From a virus (taxonomy: Duplodnaviria > Heunggongvirae > Uroviricota > Caudoviricetes), in IMG/VR virus record IMGVR_UViG_2602041644_000008, positions 1 through 37,809 of that record: 37,809 nucleotides of DNA. The stretch is one strand, 5' to 3'. The position numbers and the translations under genes were made by a program. This document shows, piece by piece, positions 3,621 to 37,809 of this stretch (position 1 is its first letter; every line of letters begins with the position of its first letter). Under the pieces are notes generated by a model. It searched no databases, was not told where the DNA came from, and worked only from the letters and a program-made list of their open reading frames with translations.

Positions 3621-5936
3621 TCATAAAATAGATTTCGTCTTTGTAACAATAATATCTACAAAATCACCTGCAGATATAGCTGATGGTACTGTATCTGCAA
3701 GAGTAATCTTTTCTGAAGAGATGTTTTGCACATCTAATAATTTATTTTCAACCCCATCCGTATATACCAATTTGACATCACTGAATGGAGGGTAATAAGT
3801 GACTGTTCCTTGGTATACATATATTTCAATGCCTGAAATTGATTTCACTACATACCTGCCCCTTACAAGATTAATTTTGAGTTCAGATAAATCGGTTTTA
3901 TAACAGGTAATTCCTGAACCAATGTTAGCCATACTAATATCAGTATCACTATAATAAGTAATTGCTTTTCCTTGTTTTAAGGTGAAGTTATCTTTGCTTT
4001 TCCTTGGCAAGGATGTGCTATTTTTGTAATATCTACCAGTTAAGCATAGCCATGAAAATGCAGTATTCGCTACATTACCACCAGAATACACAGCTAAACG
4101 AATTGCACTAACTGGAACCCCTTCATTATTAATCCTGATCTTAATGGAAGAAATGTTAGCAACAGTAGCATATCTATGGTTAGATGAATCCCATTGCATA
4201 GAAGAAGTTATTGCTTCTGTTTGTGAAGTTATGACATTCCCATCTCCATCTAATGCATACAGGTAAATGCGAAACGATGCCGTATCTGCTGAGAATGTAA
4301 ACATATCACCATTTCTTACTGGTACATCTCCAGATTCCCATAACAACCCAAAATTCCGCATAAAAGCAAACTTAGAAGAAACTAGGTGACGGATATTATA
4401 TAAACCATCTACATCTGTTTGATATGCTAATACACCAACTTCTCCATTGTTGGCACTGGATATAAATGGGGTGTTAGCATTTAAAGAAAACAATGTTACT
4501 TCATCGGATATATTTTCCTGAACATGAAATACTGCATTCCCCTTGCCATTATCAGTTACCTCTACATAAGTGTAAGGTGATGGATTGTATGGTTCATTTG
4601 TATAGTAAGGAGAACTTAACCATGAAGCCTCAATTGAGTTATTCCACGTATATTCACCAAAGTTAATTATCAACTGTTGGTTAGTTGGGGATGATGGATA
4701 TCGTTCAAAACGAAACCCGTAGAAGTAATTGTTATCACCTCTTTGAATATCAATTTTACCTGCCCCCTCCATAGTTCCACCATAAAACTTATTGTGGTTA
4801 TGATGATATGGATTATCAGCGAAAATTATATTATTCGTACGATTCAGATAAAAATAGTTTTCATTTATCCATCCGTTCTCAACTCCAAGAAAATGAATTG
4901 TATCGACCTTTTTCAGGTTAAAGGTTGAGTATGCTATTGAATAATCCGTCGATGCCACCGAAGCATTATAATTTGCATATAACTGTAAGTAGTCGCAACG
5001 CTCAATGTTTATATGCTGCCCTTTTGCCCCGATAATACGAATATCCGGTGTCGTTTCAGATGAAATACCAGAATTTCTGATAATCGTTCCGAAGTTTTGT
5101 CTTGGGTTGTTAGGGTTTGATGCATTCCCGCCAAGCAATACCCCTATTCCTGAGTGGGATATGGTAAAAACAGCATTGGTCATTTCGAGGCTGACATTAC
5201 GAAGATTTAATGTCTCCGTAATAATAAAATTACCTTCCGCTCGTAATGTTCTGGATGATTCTCGTGCATATTCTGCAGCCAGGATCAATGCAGATGTATC
5301 ATCTGTTATACCATCGCCTTTTGCCCCAAAATCGCAAACACTAACGGTGTCTCTCATCTTATCCTGGAACGTTCGGTATACTGCTCCAGAACCATACTGA
5401 ATAAACCAACCAAAACCACCAACAACCCCGGCGATTGCAGCATCGACATAATTACGCATTGAGCGATTATTTACAGCGTCCTGCTCAAGTGATGGATCTG
5501 CAAGGTTAGAAATTTTGTTTTGCTTTGCATCGTAATATTTTGCAAGCAAAGATGGTTTCATCAATGCACGTCTGAACCACCCAAAACATTGCTGGATCAG
5601 CATCGTCAGGTAGTCAAAAGCATCTTCATGCACTTCGGGGAAAAATTTTCCCTGATTGCGAAGATCTGTCTCCTGCACTACATCAAGCACACGATCTATC
5701 GTAATTCGCCAGCCAGCAGCAAGCGGAGACGGCAGAACCACTGAACCGCCACTATAAGTGCCCGCCCCAGTTACCGTATAACCGGTATCCAGAACCAATT
5801 CTGTTACGTTCCCGTTCAGGTCAGACACCTGAACAACCAGGTCTGATTTTCTGAAAATTCGAAAAGTATACGGAAACGATGTCGTAACGCCGTTACCTGT
5901 GTATTCGTTGTGGTCAACTTCGGTTGAGACCGTCAT
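3621..5936 (-). CDS. Tailspike protein with beta-helix (pectate-lyase-like) depolymerase domain
   Basis: N-terminus (YTGNGVTTSFPYTFRIF) resembles podovirus tail-fiber/tailspike particle-attachment domains; central motif CDFGAKGDGITDDTSAL is the hallmark of pectate_lyase_3 tailspikes; markedly AT-rich. Confidence 0.8.
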   Translation of the reverse strand: MTVSTEVDHNEYTGNGVTTSFPYTFRIFRKSDLVVQVSDLNGNVTELVLDTGYTVTGAGTYSGGSVVLPSPLAAGWRITIDRVLDVVQETDLRNQGKFFPEVHEDAFDYLTMLIQQCFGWFRRALMKPSLLAKYYDAKQNKISNLADPSLEQDAVNNRSMRNYVDAAIAGVVGGFGWFIQYGSGAVYRTFQDKMRDTVSVCDFGAKGDGITDDTSALILAAEYARESSRTLRAEGNFIITETLNLRNVSLEMTNAVFTISHSGIGVLLGGNASNPNNPRQNFGTIIRNSGISSETTPDIRIIGAKGQHINIERCDYLQLYANYNASVASTDYSIAYSTFNLKKVDTIHFLGVENGWINENYFYLNRTNNIIFADNPYHHNHNKFYGGTMEGAGKIDIQRGDNNYFYGFRFERYPSSPTNQQLIINFGEYTWNNSIEASWLSSPYYTNEPYNPSPYTYVEVTDNGKGNAVFHVQENISDEVTLFSLNANTPFISSANNGEVGVLAYQTDVDGLYNIRHLVSSKFAFMRNFGLLWESGDVPVRNGDMFTFSADTASFRIYLYALDGDGNVITSQTEAITSSMQWDSSNHRYATVANISSIKIRINNEGVPVSAIRLAVYSGGNVANTAFSWLCLTGRYYKNSTSLPRKSKDNFTLKQGKAITYYSDTDISMANIGSGITCYKTDLSELKINLVRGRYVVKSISGIEIYVYQGTVTYYPPFSDVKLVYTDGVENKLLDVQNISSEKITLADTVPSAISAGDFVDIIVTKTKSIL

Positions 5937-6112: not shown

Positions 6113-6132
6113 ATTGCATGGAGAAGATTAAG

Positions 6133-6390
6133 ATGCAGCAGTATCACTATCCACTGGAAGACGGATTTACCGAAAGGATTCACACGCCGGGAGGCGTCAG
6201 GTCACTGGTGGAGGGATCGCACTTGATGAAATTACTCCGGGATCTCGATAAGGATGGATTTAATGTCGATGGCCCACTTGCCGAACTGACTGCACTGATT
6301 AACTACGTCACCAGCTCACAGATGTCTATGCAGGATCTGCAAACACATCTCGACTATTGTGCCGAACAATTACGAAAACAAACCACATAA
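6133..6390 (+). CDS. Stand-alone antirepressor C-terminal domain protein (candidate SOS-induced antirepressor)
   Basis: SD GGAG upstream of the ATG at 6133; 85 aa; clearly alignable with the C-terminal ~80 aa of the BRO-N antirepressor at 7536-8228 (IHTPGGV..LMKLL..DG..V.GPLAELT...Y......L.DLQTH). Confidence 0.55.
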   Translation: MQQYHYPLEDGFTERIHTPGGVRSLVEGSHLMKLLRDLDKDGFNVDGPLAELTALINYVTSSQMSMQDLQTHLDYCAEQLRKQTT

Positions 6391-6396
6391 AGAAAA

Positions 6397-6412
6397 GGCC
6401 GCTAGAGCGGCC
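6397..6412. terminator. Bidirectional terminator between convergent genes
   Basis: GGCCGC-TAGA-GCGGCC hairpin with T-rich flanks on both strands; overlaps the stop of the minus-strand gene. Confidence 0.5.
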
Positions 6413-7140
6413 TATCGTTTCGCTTTGTGCTCGTCCCAGCACGTTTTGCACCATGCCATTAAGCCATCCGCATTTTGATTATTAGGGTAAAAGCTGGTTC
6501 GTTTTCTGCGGACATTACAAATTGGGCACCACTTCATATGGCGTGTATTCTTTGGACCATCGAGACACCTTGCACACCACTTAGTCAATCCATCTGGATT
6601 TTTTGACGATTTCCTGAATTTTTCATATGGAAGGTTTATTCTGCATCGCAAGCACTGCTTGCTACCACTTGAAACTCTGTTAGCTGATTCTTCTTTTGGC
6701 GGCGATACAGAAGGTATTCTTGCTGGCTCTGATACTGCCTGAGGTGCTTTTTTAGATGACTGAGACGATATGTCATCACCAGGGAATCGTCCATGATATG
6801 CCGGACGCGTTGACACTCCAGGTGGAAGCTCTGCTGTAAATGGCTTTGGCTGAATCAGTTGCCTCTCTTTTGCTAACTCCTGCTGTTTATAATATGTCTG
6901 GATTACCGCACTATCATAAGCAGGAGGTGCGGAAATATTAGGCGCATTACCTCCAGTTTTTTGAAACTGAGTAGAGGTGTGTTCTATCACCTGTGTACGA
7001 TTAATCGTTATCTCCCCATCTTCGGTCTTTATCGTTTTGTTATGATTAACGACCGTACGATCAGAGATCTTAGTCTTGTTCTGGTTGATAACATAAATAA
7101 TCACCGCAACCACACCAACAACTATCCAGAAAACTTCCAT
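6412..7140 (-). CDS. Membrane-anchored protein with two C-terminal zinc-ribbon-like repeats
   Basis: N-terminal TM helix, Pro/Ser-rich linker, then two repeats of C-x2-C ... DGL-x3-WC-x2-C; AT-rich gene; no family recognised. Confidence 0.5.
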   Translation of the reverse strand: MEVFWIVVGVVAVIIYVINQNKTKISDRTVVNHNKTIKTEDGEITINRTQVIEHTSTQFQKTGGNAPNISAPPAYDSAVIQTYYKQQELAKERQLIQPKPFTAELPPGVSTRPAYHGRFPGDDISSQSSKKAPQAVSEPARIPSVSPPKEESANRVSSGSKQCLRCRINLPYEKFRKSSKNPDGLTKWCARCLDGPKNTRHMKWCPICNVRRKRTSFYPNNQNADGLMAWCKTCWDEHKAKR

Positions 7141-7160
7141 TGCTTTTCCTCACAATAACA

Positions 7161-7175
7161 TTACCTTAAAGGTAA
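7161..7175. promoter_or_regulatory. Operator-like palindrome TTACC-TTAAA-GGTAA (copy 2)
   Basis: Perfect inverted repeat 21 bp upstream of the minus-strand gene start (7140). Confidence 0.6.
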
Positions 7176-7253
7176 TATCTTGCTTTCAGGTGATCAAGCG
7201 TTAAACGCAATCAACCAAATAAGGTTGATTTTAATATTTCTTCGCGTTTATCA

Positions 7254-7268
7254 TTACCTTTTAGGTAA
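7254..7268. promoter_or_regulatory. Operator-like palindrome TTACC-TTTTA-GGTAA (copy 3)
   Basis: Perfect inverted repeat at the start of the structured leader upstream of the antirepressor. Confidence 0.6.
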
Positions 7269-7535
7269 ATTTACATCGCACTCCTCTTGTGCCATAGTAA
7301 TTGGGCACTGGCAAAATCCAGTGCCGGGATTGGTCTCCCGGATTACTACAGAGGCACATATGCCGCATAAGCGGTTTTTTTATGTGTAAAGCGCACCTAT
7401 TCTATGGTGAGCTGTGTGGGGGCACCGAAAGGTGCGCCGGGTTCCTTTGTAGCCGGTAAGACCAACTCTGCACAGTTCACCACCATCTGATTGGTCTCAG
7501 CGGTGGTGATTAACCTAACTACAAAGGTGATCGCC

Positions 7536-8228
7536 ATGAATACCAAACCTTCCATCTTTTCCTTTGAGTCATCCTGCCAGATCCGTATGTTCATGATTGA
7601 CGGAGAACCTTGGTTTGTCACCAAAGATGTGTGCAATGCTTTGAATATTGATGTTACACAAGCGAGAAAACTTGATAAAAAAGGCTGGAACAAAAAGGGG
7701 CTGTATTCAATACAGACCCCTGGTGGAATACAAGAACTATCCATCGTTTCAGAATCAGGTCTCTACATCCTTATTCTGCGTTGCAAAGAGGCAATGACAG
7801 AGGGAACGAGAGCGTTCAGATTTCTTGAATGGGTTACAGGTGAGGTTCTTCCTCAGATCCGCCGCACCGGAAGTTACATTAAAAACTCGCTCCCGCAGGA
7901 AGAACGCATAAAGATGGTTGCCGACCAGGTAGCCAACGCCACAGCATCAGCAATGATGCAGGCAATGAAGATAGAGAACAAAACCTACAGTGCCCCACTG
8001 AAGCCCGGCTACCGTAGCCTGATTCATTCTCCGTCTGGTGTTCTCGGCCTGACGGAGAACTCACTGCTGATGAATCTGCTGAACCAGTTACAGGAAGACG
8101 GGCACGATGTATCGGGCGCGGCGGCGGAGCTGACCACCATGTTCTGCTACATCGTCGGTGTGAGCAAATGCCTGCGTGATATCCAGACCCACGCGGAGTA
8201 CATCAACGACAAAGCAGGATTCTTCTGA
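7536..8228 (+). CDS. Antirepressor with N-terminal BRO-N domain and C-terminal antirepressor domain
   Basis: SD AAGGTGA before the ATG at 7536; N-terminal region (IRMFMIDGEPWFVTKDVCNAL ... GLYILILRCKEA ... FRFLEWV) matches the BRO-N fold pattern; C-terminal domain paralogous to the small gene at 6133-6390. Confidence 0.65.
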   Translation: MNTKPSIFSFESSCQIRMFMIDGEPWFVTKDVCNALNIDVTQARKLDKKGWNKKGLYSIQTPGGIQELSIVSESGLYILILRCKEAMTEGTRAFRFLEWVTGEVLPQIRRTGSYIKNSLPQEERIKMVADQVANATASAMMQAMKIENKTYSAPLKPGYRSLIHSPSGVLGLTENSLLMNLLNQLQEDGHDVSGAAAELTTMFCYIVGVSKCLRDIQTHAEYINDKAGFF

Positions 8229-8258: not shown

Positions 8259-8300
8259 TAATTCTGTACAGATTGCAGACCGGGGGTGAATAGCGTACTA

Positions 8301-8315
8301 TTACCTTAAAGGTAA
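8301..8315. promoter_or_regulatory. Operator-like palindrome TTACC-TTAAA-GGTAA (copy 4) with adjacent promoter
   Basis: Perfect inverted repeat directly after a candidate -35 TTGCAG / 17 bp / -10 TACTAT; 43 bp upstream of the 8358 cassette. Confidence 0.6.
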
Positions 8316-8357
8316 ACCTGTTTTTATTTTATACCTGTAACTTACCGGAGATTAAAG

Positions 8358-8684
8358 ATGACAAAACTTGGATTCGTGATGAGAGGTCCGGTAAGAAGCG
8401 GAACTCATGCAAAGCGTAGCAAGAGTCGTATTTTTACTGGTAAGGTTGTAGCACGTAAATCAGCTATTGGCTCGTTCAATAGTGAAAATGCGGCATTGCG
8501 CCATATTTTTATCAGCACAAAGCCAAGAGCATCCGCTGATGTGCATACAATGTCTATTCCTATCACAAAGAATATCAAGCGGATAAAAAAGCTCTCATCT
8601 GCAGAATCAAAAGAGATATCTTTCCGCCAGCTTAACTCATTAGAAACGCATATGAAGGAAGAGGAATTCGATGTTTTTGAGTGA
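8358..8684 (+). CDS. Small basic protein, putative antitoxin/partner of the YafO-like gene
   Basis: SD GGAG 8 nt upstream; 108 aa, Lys/Arg-rich N-terminus, acidic C-terminus; 14-nt overlap with the downstream gene (translational coupling). No homolog recognised. Confidence 0.4.
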   Translation: MTKLGFVMRGPVRSGTHAKRSKSRIFTGKVVARKSAIGSFNSENAALRHIFISTKPRASADVHTMSIPITKNIKRIKKLSSAESKEISFRQLNSLETHMKEEEFDVFE

Positions 8685-9183
8685 GTATAGCGGGAAGGTT
8701 ATACCTACTGGTGAGTTTAAAACTGATGACTTTCTGATTTCGCTAAAAGATGCTTTTAAACAACACTGGCGTCATGGTCATCATCCTGATCTGGGAAAAG
8801 ATACTCTTTTTGAAAGACCAGACGAAGTATTAGGCTTCCATCTCAGAAAGGTTCATGTCAATATTGGTGAATATGCATCATATTCATACTCATGTACTGA
8901 ACAGTGTTGGGATGAGTGGTCATATGGATTGATTGATGAACAAGGAAATTACAGGCCAAAACCAACCAGTAACGCATATCTCATATATGCAGTCAATGAA
9001 ATAAGAGATGCAGCCTTACTAGCTTATTGGGACCCGCCCGCACACACCAAAGCTAACGCAAAAGTTTGGATGGATTCCGTATTGAATTTCACAAAATTAT
9101 TTCATGAACGAACTAATACAGCTCCACTTAGTAGAAATGTTTATCCGTGGGATTATTCGTACAAATCCAAAAAGCCTGCATAG
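8671..9183 (+). CDS. YafO-family toxin-like protein (putative ribosome-dependent mRNA interferase)
   Basis: Strong SD (GGAAGAGGAA); segments LGKDTLFE, LRKVHVNI and YLIYAVNE...ALLAYWDPPAHTKA resemble recalled YafO motifs (GRDALYD, ERVAHIHL, HLVYCQG...WLLIAILKPEPHKLA). Recall-based; needs HMM confirmation. Confidence 0.45.
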   Translation: MFLSEYSGKVIPTGEFKTDDFLISLKDAFKQHWRHGHHPDLGKDTLFERPDEVLGFHLRKVHVNIGEYASYSYSCTEQCWDEWSYGLIDEQGNYRPKPTSNAYLIYAVNEIRDAALLAYWDPPAHTKANAKVWMDSVLNFTKLFHERTNTAPLSRNVYPWDYSYKSKKPA

Positions 9184-25433: not shown

Positions 25434-25448
25434 ATTACCTTTCAGGTA
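25434..25448. promoter_or_regulatory. Operator-like palindrome TTACC-TTTCA-GGTAA (copy 5)
   Basis: Perfect inverted repeat ~90 bp upstream of the portal-side operon; TTGACA hexamer 17 bp upstream on the plus strand. Confidence 0.55.
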
Positions 25449-35255: not shown

Positions 35256-35486
35256 TCATGAGTAGAAGAAGTATGCCAGTTCTGCTTTTGAGTGCAGCCA
35301 TTGTCTTGATTTACAGGCTTTAAAAAGCCCATTCATCAATACCTTACCTGGCATTTTGCGCTTACCTGTTAAGTGAGTCTGGATATAGTGACTCGTCGTT
35401 CCGGCTTCCTGTGCGAAGGCTTCACGCTCATCCGGAGTAAGTGCAAGCCAGTGCTTTTTGAAATCGAAATGTCCGTTATCGCTCAT
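35256..35486 (-). CDS. Cro-like transcriptional regulator
   Basis: 76 aa, HTH-like segment; divergent from the repressor gene across an operator-rich region. Confidence 0.55.
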   Translation of the reverse strand: MSDNGHFDFKKHWLALTPDEREAFAQEAGTTSHYIQTHLTGKRKMPGKVLMNGLFKACKSRQWLHSKAELAYFFYS

Positions 35487-35522
35487 AGCTATTGCCTGAT
35501 ATTTATTTCAGATAATAAATAT

Positions 35523-35537
35523 TCACCTATAAGGTAA
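35523..35537. promoter_or_regulatory. Operator TCACC-TATAA-GGTAA (OR-like site 1, copy 9)
   Basis: In the cro/repressor intergenic region; lies in the spacer of a candidate cro promoter (minus strand TTGATT / 17 bp / GAATAT). Confidence 0.55.
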
Positions 35538-35553
35538 CAAAAATCAAGGATAG

Positions 35554-35568
35554 TTACCCATGAGGTGC
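35554..35568. promoter_or_regulatory. Operator TTACC-CATGA-GGTGC (OR-like site 2, copy 10, imperfect)
   Basis: Adjacent (2-bp gap) to site 3. Confidence 0.45.
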
Positions 35569-35570
35569 AT

Positions 35571-35585
35571 TTACCTGTTGGGTAA
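35571..35585. promoter_or_regulatory. Operator TTACC-TGTTG-GGTAA (OR-like site 3, copy 11)
   Basis: Perfect inverted repeat 56 bp upstream of the repressor start codon. Confidence 0.55.
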
Positions 35586-35640
35586 TATTGCTTTAAATTG
35601 AATCATCTTCTGATTCAGATATGAGGCGATTTTCCAGAAA

Positions 35641-36225
35641 ATGAAAAGTATCCAGGACGTCCGCAGGCAAAATCTCAACGACTTGATCGACCGTGAATTC
35701 AATGGTGTTCAGACGCGGATGGCTGAAAAACTTGGAACTCAGGCAAATCTGGTAAACCGCTGGGCTCTTGGCAAGAAGGTTATCGGCGACCAGGTTGCGC
35801 GAAAAATTGAAGCTGCCGCCAATAAACCCCGTAACTGGCTTGATATCGATCGCTCGCTTTCTCAGGAAGGTTTTCAGCCTGTCGGACCAAGCGACATTGG
35901 TCAACTGGCGGCTCACAACCTGGAACGCTGGATGAGCGAAAGCCGCGACCTTTCAACGCAGGGAAAACTTCACCGCGCATCCGGCGTCGCCCAGGTAACA
36001 ATCAGCCGCCTGTTAAACAATGAGGTCAGCGTTTCCATTTCCACCCTGGAGAATGTTGCATCCGCATTTGGGCGTCACGGATATGAATTACTGATTCACC
36101 CGCACGACCCCGCGACTATCAACTATGACCGCTCGCGCTACGCATTGTTACCTGAAACAGAGAAGGCAAAGATCGAAAGTTACATTGAATTTGTCATCAA
36201 CCAGAACGAAAAAAACAAACAATAA
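35641..36225 (+). CDS. Prophage repressor candidate, tandem HTH (XRE-type), no autocleavage domain
   Basis: 194 aa with two HTH-like segments (QTRMAEKLGTQANLVNRWALG and SGVAQVTISRLLNNEVSVSISTLENVA); no Ala-Gly/Ser-Lys protease signature seen; divergent from cro; followed by a terminator. Confidence 0.55.
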   Translation: MKSIQDVRRQNLNDLIDREFNGVQTRMAEKLGTQANLVNRWALGKKVIGDQVARKIEAAANKPRNWLDIDRSLSQEGFQPVGPSDIGQLAAHNLERWMSESRDLSTQGKLHRASGVAQVTISRLLNNEVSVSISTLENVASAFGRHGYELLIHPHDPATINYDRSRYALLPETEKAKIESYIEFVINQNEKNKQ

Positions 36226-36247
36226 AATCATATTTTTCAGTAAGTAA

Positions 36248-36272
36248 GCCGCCTTCTGGCGGCTTTTTTATT
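36248..36272 (+). terminator. Rho-independent terminator after the repressor gene
   Basis: GCCGCC-TTCT-GGCGGC followed by TTTTTTATT. Confidence 0.65.
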
Positions 36273-36282
36273 GCCTATTTGA

Positions 36283-36297
36283 TTACCTAACGGGTAA
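36283..36297. promoter_or_regulatory. Operator TTACC-TAACG-GGTAA (OL-like site, copy 12)
   Basis: Perfect inverted repeat with A/T flanks just after the repressor terminator. Confidence 0.55.
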
Positions 36298-36344
36298 TTT
36301 TTTTAACTCATATCTATTGACATCAAACCAGATACGCATAATTA

Positions 36345-36359
36345 TTACCTCAACGGTAA
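36345..36359. promoter_or_regulatory. Operator TTACC-TCAAC-GGTAA (OL-like site, copy 13) overlapping pL-like promoter
   Basis: TTGACA at 36317-36322, AT-rich -10 region, operator at the predicted start site; 20 nt upstream of the first early-left ORF. Confidence 0.55.
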
Positions 36360-36378
36360 CAGACCGAGGTAACAAGTT

Positions 36379-37620: not shown

Positions 37621-37809
<189 letters not shown>

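Follow-up and report, generated by a model that had tools for sequence, protein, structure and literature searches.

The genes that accompany phage repressors have yielded many weapons of phage-versus-phage conflict, and most of them remain unassigned. What does one such gene, coding for a membrane-anchored protein with two zinc ribbons, do among the antirepressor genes of a temperate phage? The stretch of DNA analyzed here, called the window (37,809 nucleotides), is a phiV10/epsilon15-like Escherichia coli prophage. The gene (ORF 6412-7140) is located in a variable slot of the antirepressor (immI-like) island, and a P1-type immI operon (IsrK/C4 RNA-ant) runs divergently from it. It forms a self-contained cassette of a promoter with an operator, a Shine-Dalgarno sequence, the coding sequence and a terminator, the last serving both this gene and the convergent ORF90:

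7169 to 7197, minus strand: putative sigma-70-type promoter, with -35 TTGATC (7197-7192), a 17-bp spacer and -10 TACCTT (7174-7169)
7160 to 7176, no strand: perfect 17-bp palindromic repressor operator ATTACCTTAAAGGTAAT, with zero mismatches to the consensus
7147 to 7151, minus strand: Shine-Dalgarno GAGGA, 6 nt 5' of the ATG, from reading of the sequence
6412 to 7140, minus strand: coding sequence for 242 amino acids from the ORF listing, with an ATG start and the stop codon at 6412-6414; member of phrog_6762
6396 to 6413, no strand: terminator found by a terminator scan, a GC-rich hairpin AGGCCGCTCTAGCGGCCT followed by a T-run

ORF 6412-7140 is a real gene, because it has a Shine-Dalgarno sequence, a terminator, dN/dS of 0.3-0.4 and homologues across genera. 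Comparison with close variants gave dN/dS values of 0.29-0.40, indicating purifying selection, and in comparisons with other genera dS is saturated while the protein is still conserved. The homologues come from Enterobacterales, Aeromonas and Acinetobacter, and the full-length gene with conserved start and stop is present in many genera. It is also an accessory gene, as the first-pass annotation had proposed: among 80 near-identical islands, 29 carry it in the slot, the slot is empty in 25 and the remainder hold other cassettes. The gene is missing from phiV10; a global MAFFT alignment between phiV10 and the window was poor, and the boundaries of the deletion were taken directly from the sequence. 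The AT-richness relative to the structural genes, which had been offered as a sign of recent acquisition, is real yet modest (GC 0.433 for the gene versus 0.495 for structural genes and 0.478 for the whole window). We found the gene in 129 of 5426 complete E. coli genomes (about 2%) and never on plasmids. A scan of genome contigs returned only 3 loci, its patterns being strict.

The alternative contents of the slot give nothing decisive on function, since Pfam matched only a YafO-like toxin, DUF4760 and DUF2335 among ten alternative cargo proteins; two EC.W1-9 slot genes had no Pfam match. PADLOC gave no match at E <= 0.01 for the ten alternative cargo proteins of the island, and PADLOC-DB v2 gave none at E <= 0.1 for the 242-aa protein or its neighbors. 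The lack of any PADLOC match for the protein or for its slot-mates counts against a role in defense.

The protein itself consists of a two-residue N-terminus, a transmembrane (TM) helix, a juxtamembrane segment, a linker and two Cys4 zinc ribbons, encoded as follows:

7084 to 7134, minus strand: single N-terminal TM helix, residues 3-19, hydrophobic (AF2 helix 3-20)
6967 to 7083, minus strand: juxtamembrane segment, residues 20-58, with the near-invariant columns NQNKTK.SDRTVV...TIKTEDGEI.I.RTQV
6670 to 6966, minus strand: low-complexity linker, residues 59-157, P/S/A/Q-rich and predicted to be disordered
6553 to 6669, minus strand: zinc ribbon 1, residues 158-196, with C163, C166, C189 and C192
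6415 to 6552, minus strand: zinc ribbon 2 and basic C-terminal helix, residues 197-242, with C205, C208, C231 and C234

Both the residue layout and the AF2 model agree with the earlier description of one N-terminal TM helix, a Pro/Ser-rich linker and two tandem repeats. The repeat spacing had been misread as DGL-x3-WC; it is DGL-x2-WC in both copies (C163-x2-C166...D183GL-x2-W188C189-x2-C192 and C205-x2-C208...D225GL-x2-W230C231-x2-C234). The two repeats share 35% identity over 40 ungapped residues (E 1e-7), and the motif was found nowhere else in a six-frame translation of the whole window. In the AF2 model, pLDDT is about 85-89 for the helix predicted at residues 3-19 and above 90 for ribbon 1, where the Cys residues, F175, D183, G184 and W188 are invariant in the alignment. 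Juxtamembrane strands 26-39 and 42-55 are modelled as a beta-hairpin at low confidence (pLDDT 45-53), and most of the linker has a pLDDT below 50. The 99 linker residues include 14 P, 12 S, 11 A and 8 Q; both sequence and length of the linker differ among homologues, some of which have PAPAPA runs. The C-terminal domain contains 20 K/R versus 6 D/E, a net charge of +14, and this charge ranges from +9 to +16 across 19 full-length aligned members.

In all 20 aligned homologues the N-terminus is "ME" and never a basic residue, and 3-5 K/R follow within 16 residues after the TM helix. According to the positive-inside rule, this distribution of charge suggests an N-out / C-in topology. A Sec signal peptide was ruled out, as there is no basic n-region.

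The first-pass annotation recognized no known family, which is only partly correct. The protein is a member of phrog_6762 (PHROGs v4), with residues 1-242 matching profile positions 1-242 of 242 at E 1.1e-150, and its ribbons are Stc1-like; phrog_6762 is without functional annotation ("unknown function"), and every one of the 33 homologues found is annotated as "hypothetical". The remote homology search that had been suggested, carried out with Pfam, PHROGs and Foldseek, pointed to Stc1-type ribbons, with a Pfam score below the cutoff and 2LUY as the top PDB match. For Pfam PF12898 (Stc1) the score was 21.0 bits (E 5e-4), short of the gathering threshold of 24.8 bits, and matches were likewise weak in 18 of 20 homologues (best E 1.2e-4). 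Foldseek matched 2LUY (Stc1) with a probability of 0.92 and E 3e-3, and superposition on 2LUY gave a low TM-score and a high rmsd over the flexible two-module unit. The eight Cys residues are arranged in two CxxC...CxxC modules in the Stc1 pattern and are invariant or near-invariant across homologues.

Relatives of the ribbons extend the comparison to enzymes that act on DNA. Multi-repeat relatives exceed the Stc1 cutoff, one of them having its ribbons N-terminal to an HNH domain, while helicases and wHTH domains are the fusion partners of others. PHROG matches fell on the N-terminal parts of families for endonuclease VII, HNH and primase, the viral fold neighbors are mostly HNH/EndoVII proteins, and ribbon 1 matches the N-terminal zinc site of PacI, one of the HNH/EndoVII nucleases that carry this module ahead of the nuclease part. 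From sequence and modelled structure, we assign the zinc ribbons to the Stc1/HNH-accessory type. No HNH or Endonuclease_7 Pfam match was obtained for the protein or its homologues, nor was the catalytic HNH motif (His...Asn...His/Asn) found, ribbon 1 having no His between its Cys pairs. A degenerate HNH nuclease was ruled out on account of the missing catalytic residues.

Searches of Pfam, NCBIfam and PADLOC yielded no qualifying family for the 242-aa protein, and the members of its cluster bear no informative names. Neither Pfam nor NCBIfam matched ZipA_C; a true ZipA homologue was ruled out by the missing ZipA_C domain, and the JGI name "ZipA" for homologue P0181 is an artefact of architecture and composition. 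A faint "YonG_N" Pfam flag on three distant homologues was dropped because the close family did not show it. A literature search found no paper on the protein family or on the operator.

When is the gene expressed? Searches of the window with ATTACCTTNAAGGTAAT (up to 3 mismatches) found 9 sites where 0.12 are expected, and TTACC-N5-GGTAA (up to 1 mismatch) found 16 where 0.67 are expected. Sites of this operator family cluster around the cI/cro region and flank the cI/cro and PL-like promoters, and 7160-7176 is the best operator site in the genome. The earlier claim of an operator copy close to the start is borne out by this over-representation; the distance is 20 nt rather than 21 (7160 to the A of the ATG, 7140). 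The repressor of the window, 194 amino acids long, is encoded at 35641-36225. The -10 TACCTT sits within the operator, and transcription is predicted to start near 7162. A generic promoter scan did not detect the putative promoter at 7169-7197; the same geometry of -35, 17 bp and -10 in an operator recurs ahead of homologues from other genera, one of them in a Providencia phage whose operator sequence is different. Location of the -10 inside the operator and conservation of this geometry suggest that the repressor keeps the gene off in the stable lysogen and that it comes on once the phage infects or is induced. No operators are mapped in the ZX5 paper.

In relatives the gene keeps different company. 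In eight lambdoid lineages a homologue follows cI immediately, reading on the same strand and divergently from cro, with gaps after cI of 2-55 bp where measurable; for L189 the match covered the C-terminal part alone. In these lambdoid relatives the gene is probably co-transcribed with cI, in which case the protein would be made in lysogens. In epsilon15-like phages the homologue is divergent from, or beside, antirepressor genes. The gene of the window is not directly after cI, which is directly followed by a terminator and the PL-like promoter. The position downstream of cI is that of rexAB in lambda and of superinfection exclusion (Sie) genes in many temperate phages.

We consider a membrane-tethered, nucleic-acid-binding exclusion or defense factor the best candidate explanation, with a probability of roughly 40%. 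The protein would be bitopic in the inner membrane, with two residues in the periplasm, one TM helix and its C-terminal domain in the cytoplasm. Its conserved juxtamembrane segment may promote oligomerization, and a disordered tether of ~100 amino acids would lead to the strongly basic tandem Cys4 domain. On the cytoplasmic side of the membrane this domain would bind nucleic acid, DNA being the likeliest ligand. Such a protein would serve in phage-versus-phage competition. It could capture or block incoming foreign DNA (superinfection exclusion), or it could sense incoming DNA and disturb the membrane, resembling AbiP/PdpSau-like abortive infection. By occluding the -10, the repressor would keep the gene silent in the stable lysogen, and expression would come on with the antirepressor operon after infection or induction.

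This candidate reading of exclusion or defense gains contextual support from the cI-downstream homologues in the eight lambdoid lineages. For this phage, the -10 inside a perfect operator predicts silence in the stable lysogen, which counts against lysogen protection; the overlap fits exclusion in the early phase but weakens the rex analogy. The tandem finger of fission yeast Stc1 binds a protein (Ago1) and not DNA, so the ligand could also be a protein. In a broader and more doubtful version of these ideas, the homologues may form an unrecognized, widespread class of immunity-region genes for repressor-linked, membrane-tethered zinc fingers, acting by DNA capture at the membrane or by coupling the switch to the membrane. 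The class so drawn takes in prophages of epsilon15-like podophages in Enterobacterales as well as lambdoid ones in Aeromonas, Acinetobacter and others.

A place next to cI and ant fits a function within the immunity circuit just as well. The protein may be a part of the lysis-lysogeny circuit and not of defense, a membrane-tethered factor made at decision time that would act on the repressor, on the antirepressor or on what becomes of the phage genome, for instance as a membrane anchor for the incoming genome or for a regulator. In the lambdoid phages PRE/PRM would drive its expression along with cI, and in this phage a repressor-controlled early promoter beside ant would do so; either layout would lead to early expression after infection. 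The gene is always found in the immunity region, whether after cI, near antirepressor genes or, as in the window, divergent from the IsrK/C4-ant operon, and cI-to-gene gaps of 2-21 bp suggest coupled expression. In addition, the CI of the window has no S24 domain, so its circuit depends on Ant. Yet the gene is dispensable: near-identical phages are without it, and phages that have been isolated, phiV10 and ZX5 among them, lysogenize without it. To our knowledge no phage switch uses a zinc-finger regulator tethered to the membrane, and genes downstream of cI in studied phages are usually exclusion genes, which further counts against this explanation. Overall, we regard it as unlikely.

Less probable still is a pro-phage DNA tether comparable to p16.7 of phi29, which would hold DNA of the phage itself at the membrane as it enters or replicates, in aid of genome entry, end protection or replication. 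A basic cytoplasmic domain of the type found on DNA enzymes, joined through a spacer to an N-terminal anchor, matches what such a tether would look like, and the early, repressor-controlled expression suggested for this phage is consistent with it. However, its sporadic presence among otherwise identical phages argues against a core role in replication or entry, nothing beyond its position in the island links it to replication or structural modules, and co-transcription with cI in lysogens would be odd for a lytic replication factor.

We give similarly little credence to a tether for host takeover, in which the zinc fingers would be a protein-protein module (Stc1/LIM-like) sequestering a host division, transcription or defense protein at the membrane in the manner of ZipA. 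The closest solved fold, 2LUY, is a protein-binding tandem finger, the layout of N-out TM helix, charged segment, P/Q-rich linker and globular C-terminal domain is ZipA-like, as was the automatic JGI name of one homologue, and repressor-controlled early genes often target host functions. Against this, neither ZipA_C nor another known protein-binding domain was matched, the extreme positive charge and the nuclease and helicase fusions of relatives favor nucleic acid, and constitutive production alongside cI would be a heavy burden on the host in the case of an essential target.

A reversed, TonB-like topology, with the Pro-rich linker across the periplasm and the eight Cys as disulfides, would let the protein block a receptor or ejection channel from outside the cytoplasm; the series of anchor, Pro-rich spacer and C-terminal globular domain does resemble TonB and TolA. 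It is very improbable given the charge distribution around the TM helix in every homologue, the match of the CxxC...CxxC ribbons to cytoplasmic zinc modules of nucleases and helicases, and the absent signal-peptide n-region. A non-functional chance ORF or decaying remnant, to which the TL-2011b GenBank record might point, its entry for the region being just a misc_feature "similar to hypothetical protein", is effectively refuted by the conservation of the full-length gene across genera, by its dN/dS and expression signals (Shine-Dalgarno, promoter and terminator) and by its being intact in TL-2011b (L046).

The family unites a testable architecture of anchor, tether and basic zinc fingers with two different hard-wired links to a repressor, and it reaches several other genera besides E. 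coli. If the exclusion reading is true and the protein captures DNA at the inner membrane, it would represent a new mechanism of superinfection exclusion acting from the cytoplasmic face, and the gene could serve as a marker for prophage-mediated resistance, with relevance to host-range prediction in phage therapy. If its action is instead in the switch, the protein would be a switch component of a new kind and the first non-enzymatic context for the prokaryotic Stc1-type ribbon, which is known mainly as an appendage of homing nucleases.

Among known systems, phrog_6762 is the same family, and its record does not include the regulatory and synteny features described here. Stc1 of S. pombe (PF12898; 2LUY) likewise has two consecutive CxxC...CxxC modules with eight Cys; it is a soluble protein of a eukaryote, with fingers that bind Ago1, whereas the phage domain is highly basic and membrane-tethered. 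Resemblance to PacI (3M7K/3LDY) and Hpy99I (3FC3) is limited to the zinc-ribbon part. In HNH/beta-beta-alpha-Me and EndoVII nucleases and in phage HNH homing endonucleases the ribbons are carried on an enzyme, while here they are carried on a membrane anchor and no nuclease domain was detected.

ZipA of E. coli and p16.7 of phi29, the latter of which tethers DNA to the membrane, share with the phage protein an N-terminal anchor and a C-terminus in the cytoplasm (predicted for the phage protein), joined by a charged stretch next to the membrane and a flexible linker that in ZipA is P/Q-rich, as it is here; each ends in a C-terminal domain for ligand binding, but the phage protein has no ZipA_C or p16.7-like domain. 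With lambda RexAB and Sie proteins it shares the position after cI, in the eight lambdoid lineages, and a predicted inner-membrane product. RexAB consists of two proteins and this system of one, with no homology between them, and the gene of the window differs further in lying beside the ant operon instead of cI and in its predicted repression in the lysogen. AbiP of Lactococcus and PdpSau of an S. aureus prophage are membrane-anchored, positively charged, nucleic-acid-binding proteins of abortive infection (PMC10127798) and set a precedent for such an architecture in defense. No sequence relation between them and the 242-aa protein was found, and their domain is OB-fold-like without a long disordered tether, in place of which the phage protein has a zinc-ribbon pair and a tether. 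They nevertheless have the same single N-terminal TM helix and positive cytoplasmic domain as are predicted for this protein (TM 3-19; 20 K/R versus 6 D/E), that domain is predicted or shown to bind nucleic acid, and both are accessory (PMC10127798).

Judged by its full set of expression signals and its conservation, ORF242 (6412-7140, minus strand, 242 aa from an ATG start in the ORF listing) is a real gene. Compared with close E. coli variants the gene has a dN/dS of 0.29-0.40, and in other genera, where dS is saturated or nearly so, the protein is still 40-68% identical, which together argue for a functional gene. Its GC content of 0.433, compared to 0.495 for the structural genes, agrees with the AT-richness described in the first-pass annotation. 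The window represents the genome of a temperate podophage of phiV10/epsilon15 type with EC.W1-9 and TL-2011b as closest relatives, and ORF242 lies inside a 3.5-kb accessory island. To its right, the P_ant, IsrK, C4 and Ant (antirepressor) layout is a P1-type immI (c4-ant) control region, here in an epsilon15-like podophage.

Features of the accessory island and the immunity region
3621-5936, minus strand: tailspike gene, island boundary
6118-6390, plus strand: ORF90, convergent with ORF242
Abutting the ORF242 stop codon: GC-rich hairpin and T-run, terminator (terminator scan)
6 nt upstream of the ORF242 ATG, minus strand: Shine-Dalgarno GAGGA (read from sequence)
7197-7192 and 7174-7169, minus strand: ORF242 promoter, -35 TTGATC, 17-nt spacer, -10 TACCTT (read from sequence)
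7225-7254, divergent from ORF242: P_ant promoter TTGATT-18-TATCAT, right neighbour, -10 abutting operator 7253-7269
7292-7344, plus strand: c4-a1b1 target element, sub-threshold (RNA family search)
7305-7381, plus strand: IsrK-like sRNA (RF01394, 74.7 bits vs GA 50)
7400-7487, plus strand: C4 antisense RNA (RF01695, 78.2 bits vs GA 45)
7491-8228, after the C4 RNA: Bro-N antirepressor gene (domain and PHROG matches)
8358-9183, plus strand: overlapping genes ORF108 and ORF170, operator copy 8300-8316
From 9456: virion/injection protein genes, other island boundary
35256-36360: immunity region
35641-36225: repressor gene, 194 aa (HTH_3)

The proposal that ORF242 is an accessory gene is borne out by its behavior as a mobile cassette, since its slot is empty, filled by it or otherwise filled among relatives. 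In phiV10 the end of ORF90 is joined almost directly to the P_ant operator without ORF242, and in EC.W1-9 two unrelated genes occupy the slot. Among 80 IMG/VR loci with near-identical ORF90, 25 slots were empty, 29 held ORF242 and approximately 8 held a YafO-like two-gene cassette, while the others differ further.

Several other elements of the window were observed. ORF108 and ORF170 resemble a pair of the toxin-antitoxin type. ORF170 matches YafO_toxin weakly and its island relatives exceed the YafO cutoff; the promoter of the pair, TTGCAG-17-TACTAT, abuts the operator copy 8300-8316, and in other phages this cassette sits in the slot held here by ORF242. ORF90 is a free-standing copy of the Ant C-terminal domain (phrog_450 matches both, Ant residues 162-243), its position adjoining the tailspike gene is conserved in phiV10 and also in relatives from Providencia and Serratia, and it could modulate Ant. 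A mechanical ORF at 7397-7744 (minus strand) is almost certainly spurious because it overlaps the IsrK/C4 leader region (7292-7487). Between the two divergent promoters, an 8-6-8 palindrome, AATCAACC-AAATAA-GGTTGATT (7209-7230), contains the P_ant -35 inside its right arm; it is terminator-like by scan score and could be a protein-binding site instead. At the window's right edge, a short ORF (37621-37800, minus strand) resembles the C-terminus of an IS21-family IstB helper, which would suggest an IS element at or beside the prophage end.

The operator copy described next to the ORF242 start is real (7160-7176), but its distance to the ATG is 20 nt, not 21. It is one of a strongly over-represented site family: with up to three mismatches the 17-mer operator occurs at nine sites in the window (0.12 expected), and TTACC-N5-GGTAA with at most one mismatch at 16 sites (0.67 expected). 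Additional copies at 25434, 28580, 33178, 33239 and 35185 hint that the repressor controls a dispersed regulon, as in P1. Degenerate operators lie between the repressor gene and a 76-aa cro-like gene, and the repressor gene is followed by a terminator and then a PL-like promoter, TTGACA-16-TAATTA, with operators 36282 and 36344 on either side. A Peptidase_S24 domain was not found in the 194-aa repressor, so prophage induction presumably depends on the antirepressor.

The -10 of the ORF242 promoter lies inside the perfect palindrome 7176-7160, and this arrangement recurs upstream of homologues: TTGACC-17-TACCTT in the Citrobacter/Enterobacter/Salmonella-type loci, TTGAAC-17-TACCTT in Serratia and TTGATC-17-TACCTT in an IMG/VR viral contig (L069). 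Providencia has a different operator sequence, ATTAACC..GGTTAAT, and a -10 of TAACCT. In every one of these cases a spacing of exactly 17 bp separates TTGAnn from a -10 that falls within an operator-like palindrome, 55-70 nt ahead of the ATG, and the flanking sequence is not conserved. We read this layout as a phylogenetic footprint marking a genuine but weak sigma-70 promoter, which would be occluded by the resident repressor. Because the -10 is within the operator and the geometry is conserved, expression of ORF242 is predicted to be shut off in a stable lysogen and, along with that of the ant operon, to start after infection or induction. Loci L061-L067 of the Citrobacter/Enterobacter/Salmonella type also carry a perfect 12-bp palindrome, GTGACATGTCAC (GTGACGTGTCAC in L064), approximately 75-85 nt upstream of the ATG and just upstream of the -35. 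This palindrome, absent from the window, could be the site of a second regulator; a CRP site is a misfit due to the 4-bp spacing.

The 33 homologues come from E. coli, Superficieibacter, Enterobacter, Citrobacter, Salmonella, Serratia, Providencia, Pectobacterium and Buttiauxella; others are carried by Yersinia phages YeP4-6 and by the Aeromonas phage phiARM81mr. The full-length gene is present in 129 of 5426 complete E. coli genomes, chromosomal in every case and with no plasmid match, and it is intact but lacks annotation in the TL-2011b GenBank record (L046). In the great majority of 23 loci checked the protein opens with "ME" straight into the TM helix (variants MQ-, ML- and MD-), while the homologue from Aeromonas begins with an acidic lead of six residues, MQMEDV. 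In the YeP5 homologue (L002 1900-2634) the TM helix is followed at once by a (KT)9 repeat, apparently an expanded form of the conserved NQNKTK juxtamembrane motif, and the CDS is annotated as starting some 30 codons ahead of the conserved "MEIFW" start.

Distant homologues in lambdoid prophages directly follow a CI-type repressor gene, sharing its strand and divergent from cro, in eight lineages in all. This is the position of rexAB in lambda, where the gene would have to be co-transcribed with cI.

Homologues after cI-type genes
Aeromonas phiARM81mr: gap 18 bp
Acinetobacter sp. HY1485: gap 55 bp
P0040 (L175/L176/L182): gap 18 bp
P0061: gap 21 bp
P0055: gap 35 bp
P0072: gap 2 bp
L189 type (S24 CI): directly after cI, match confined to the C-terminal part of the gene
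L193 type (HTH repressor): gap ~21 bp

Other homologues adjoin antirepressors (pRha, KilA-N/ANT, ORF6N), toxin-antitoxin genes or Fic. The common theme is location in immunity or accessory regions of temperate phages; none of the loci examined placed a homologue in a replication or morphogenesis module.

The hydrophobic N-terminal helix (residues 3-19) and the Pro/Ser-rich linker (residues 59-157; 14 P, 12 S, 11 A and 8 Q among 99 residues) are present as described. Both tandem Cys repeats are there too, with the spacing corrected from DGL-x3-WC-x2-C to DGL-x2-WC-x2-C; they share 35% identity across 40 ungapped residues (E 1e-7), and a six-frame translation of the window holds no other copy. 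AlphaFold2, run on a 20-sequence family alignment, gave a confident TM helix (residues 3-20) and C-terminal domain (residues 160-242, pLDDT >90), each repeat being modelled as a small beta/alpha zinc-ribbon unit, with low confidence elsewhere. Three blocks are conserved in the alignment: the TM helix, a juxtamembrane segment (residues 20-58, a low-confidence hairpin) and the two ribbons, while the linker varies in length and sequence. All homologues in the 20-sequence alignment lack a basic residue before the TM helix and have 3-5 K/R in the 16 residues after it, so the positive-inside rule predicts an N-out, C-in topology; a Cys4 zinc domain likewise requires C-in. The C-domain has 20 K/R and 6 D/E (net +14; +9 to +16 across 19 full-length aligned members).

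The first-pass annotation recognised no known family. The protein is catalogued as phrog_6762, but this entry has no assigned function and our literature search found no paper on it. As far as can be told, the architecture of N-out anchor, tether and Stc1-type ribbons, the two repressor links and the breadth of distribution are new descriptions. Stc1 (PF12898) was the sole Pfam match, scoring 21 bits where the gathering score is 24.8, and recurred weakly in 18 of 20 homologues. A profile search of 1.84 billion representatives returned 1825 proteins at E <= 1e-3: about 50 full-length relatives, the others being multi-repeat proteins that pass the Stc1 cutoff (54-66 bits). One of these has ribbons N-terminal to an HNH domain, and other ribbon relatives are fusions with ResIII/DEAD or SF1 helicases, HEAT repeats or winged-helix domains. 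The ribbons were also matched by PHROG profiles of endonuclease VII, HNH endonuclease, primase and a "Lar-like" family, and a sequence profile picked up the first zinc site of PacI (E 0.076). The top Foldseek match in the PDB was the Stc1 tandem finger 2LUY (probability 0.92), with a low TM-score and high rmsd across the flexible pair of modules, and viral fold neighbours were mainly HNH/EndoVII proteins from actinophages and giant viruses. Since catalytic HNH residues are absent from the ribbons, we read the C-domain as a double zinc ribbon of Stc1 type that is not catalytic. Such modules usually appear as companions of DNA enzymes in prokaryotes and viruses, and this association and the charge suggest DNA binding.

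The best-supported reading, at roughly 40%, is a membrane-tethered nucleic-acid-binding protein for phage competition. The anchor and juxtamembrane block would hold the protein at the inner membrane, perhaps oligomerising it, and the ~100-aa tether would let the basic double ribbon range over the cytoplasmic face, the site at which injected DNA appears. The protein may exclude this DNA by blocking or trapping it, or may act by abortive infection, detecting the DNA and disturbing the membrane. We hold this tentatively because defence HMMs (PADLOC) matched neither ORF242 nor the alternative island cargo proteins, the ribbons could bind a protein, as the Stc1 tandem finger does, and predicted repression in the lysogen of this phage fits early-phase exclusion only. 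Action inside the lysis-lysogeny circuit is unlikely, though repressor and antirepressor neighbours speak for it. Tethering of the phage's own DNA in the manner of p16.7, compatible with an anchored basic domain and set against the lack of homologues in replication modules, is rather improbable. So, to the same degree, is sequestration of a host protein, which the Stc1 ligand would allow and the company of DNA enzymes does not favor. An inverted, TonB-like topology, at odds with the charge bias and the Cys4 domain, is highly improbable.

For a role in phage competition, rexAB and many sie genes are precedents for adjacency to a repressor gene. AbiP and PdpSau provide a precedent for the membrane-anchored nucleic-acid-binding architecture (PMC10127798). 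Functionally, ORF242 would be best filed with membrane-anchored prophage accessory proteins acting on incoming phage.
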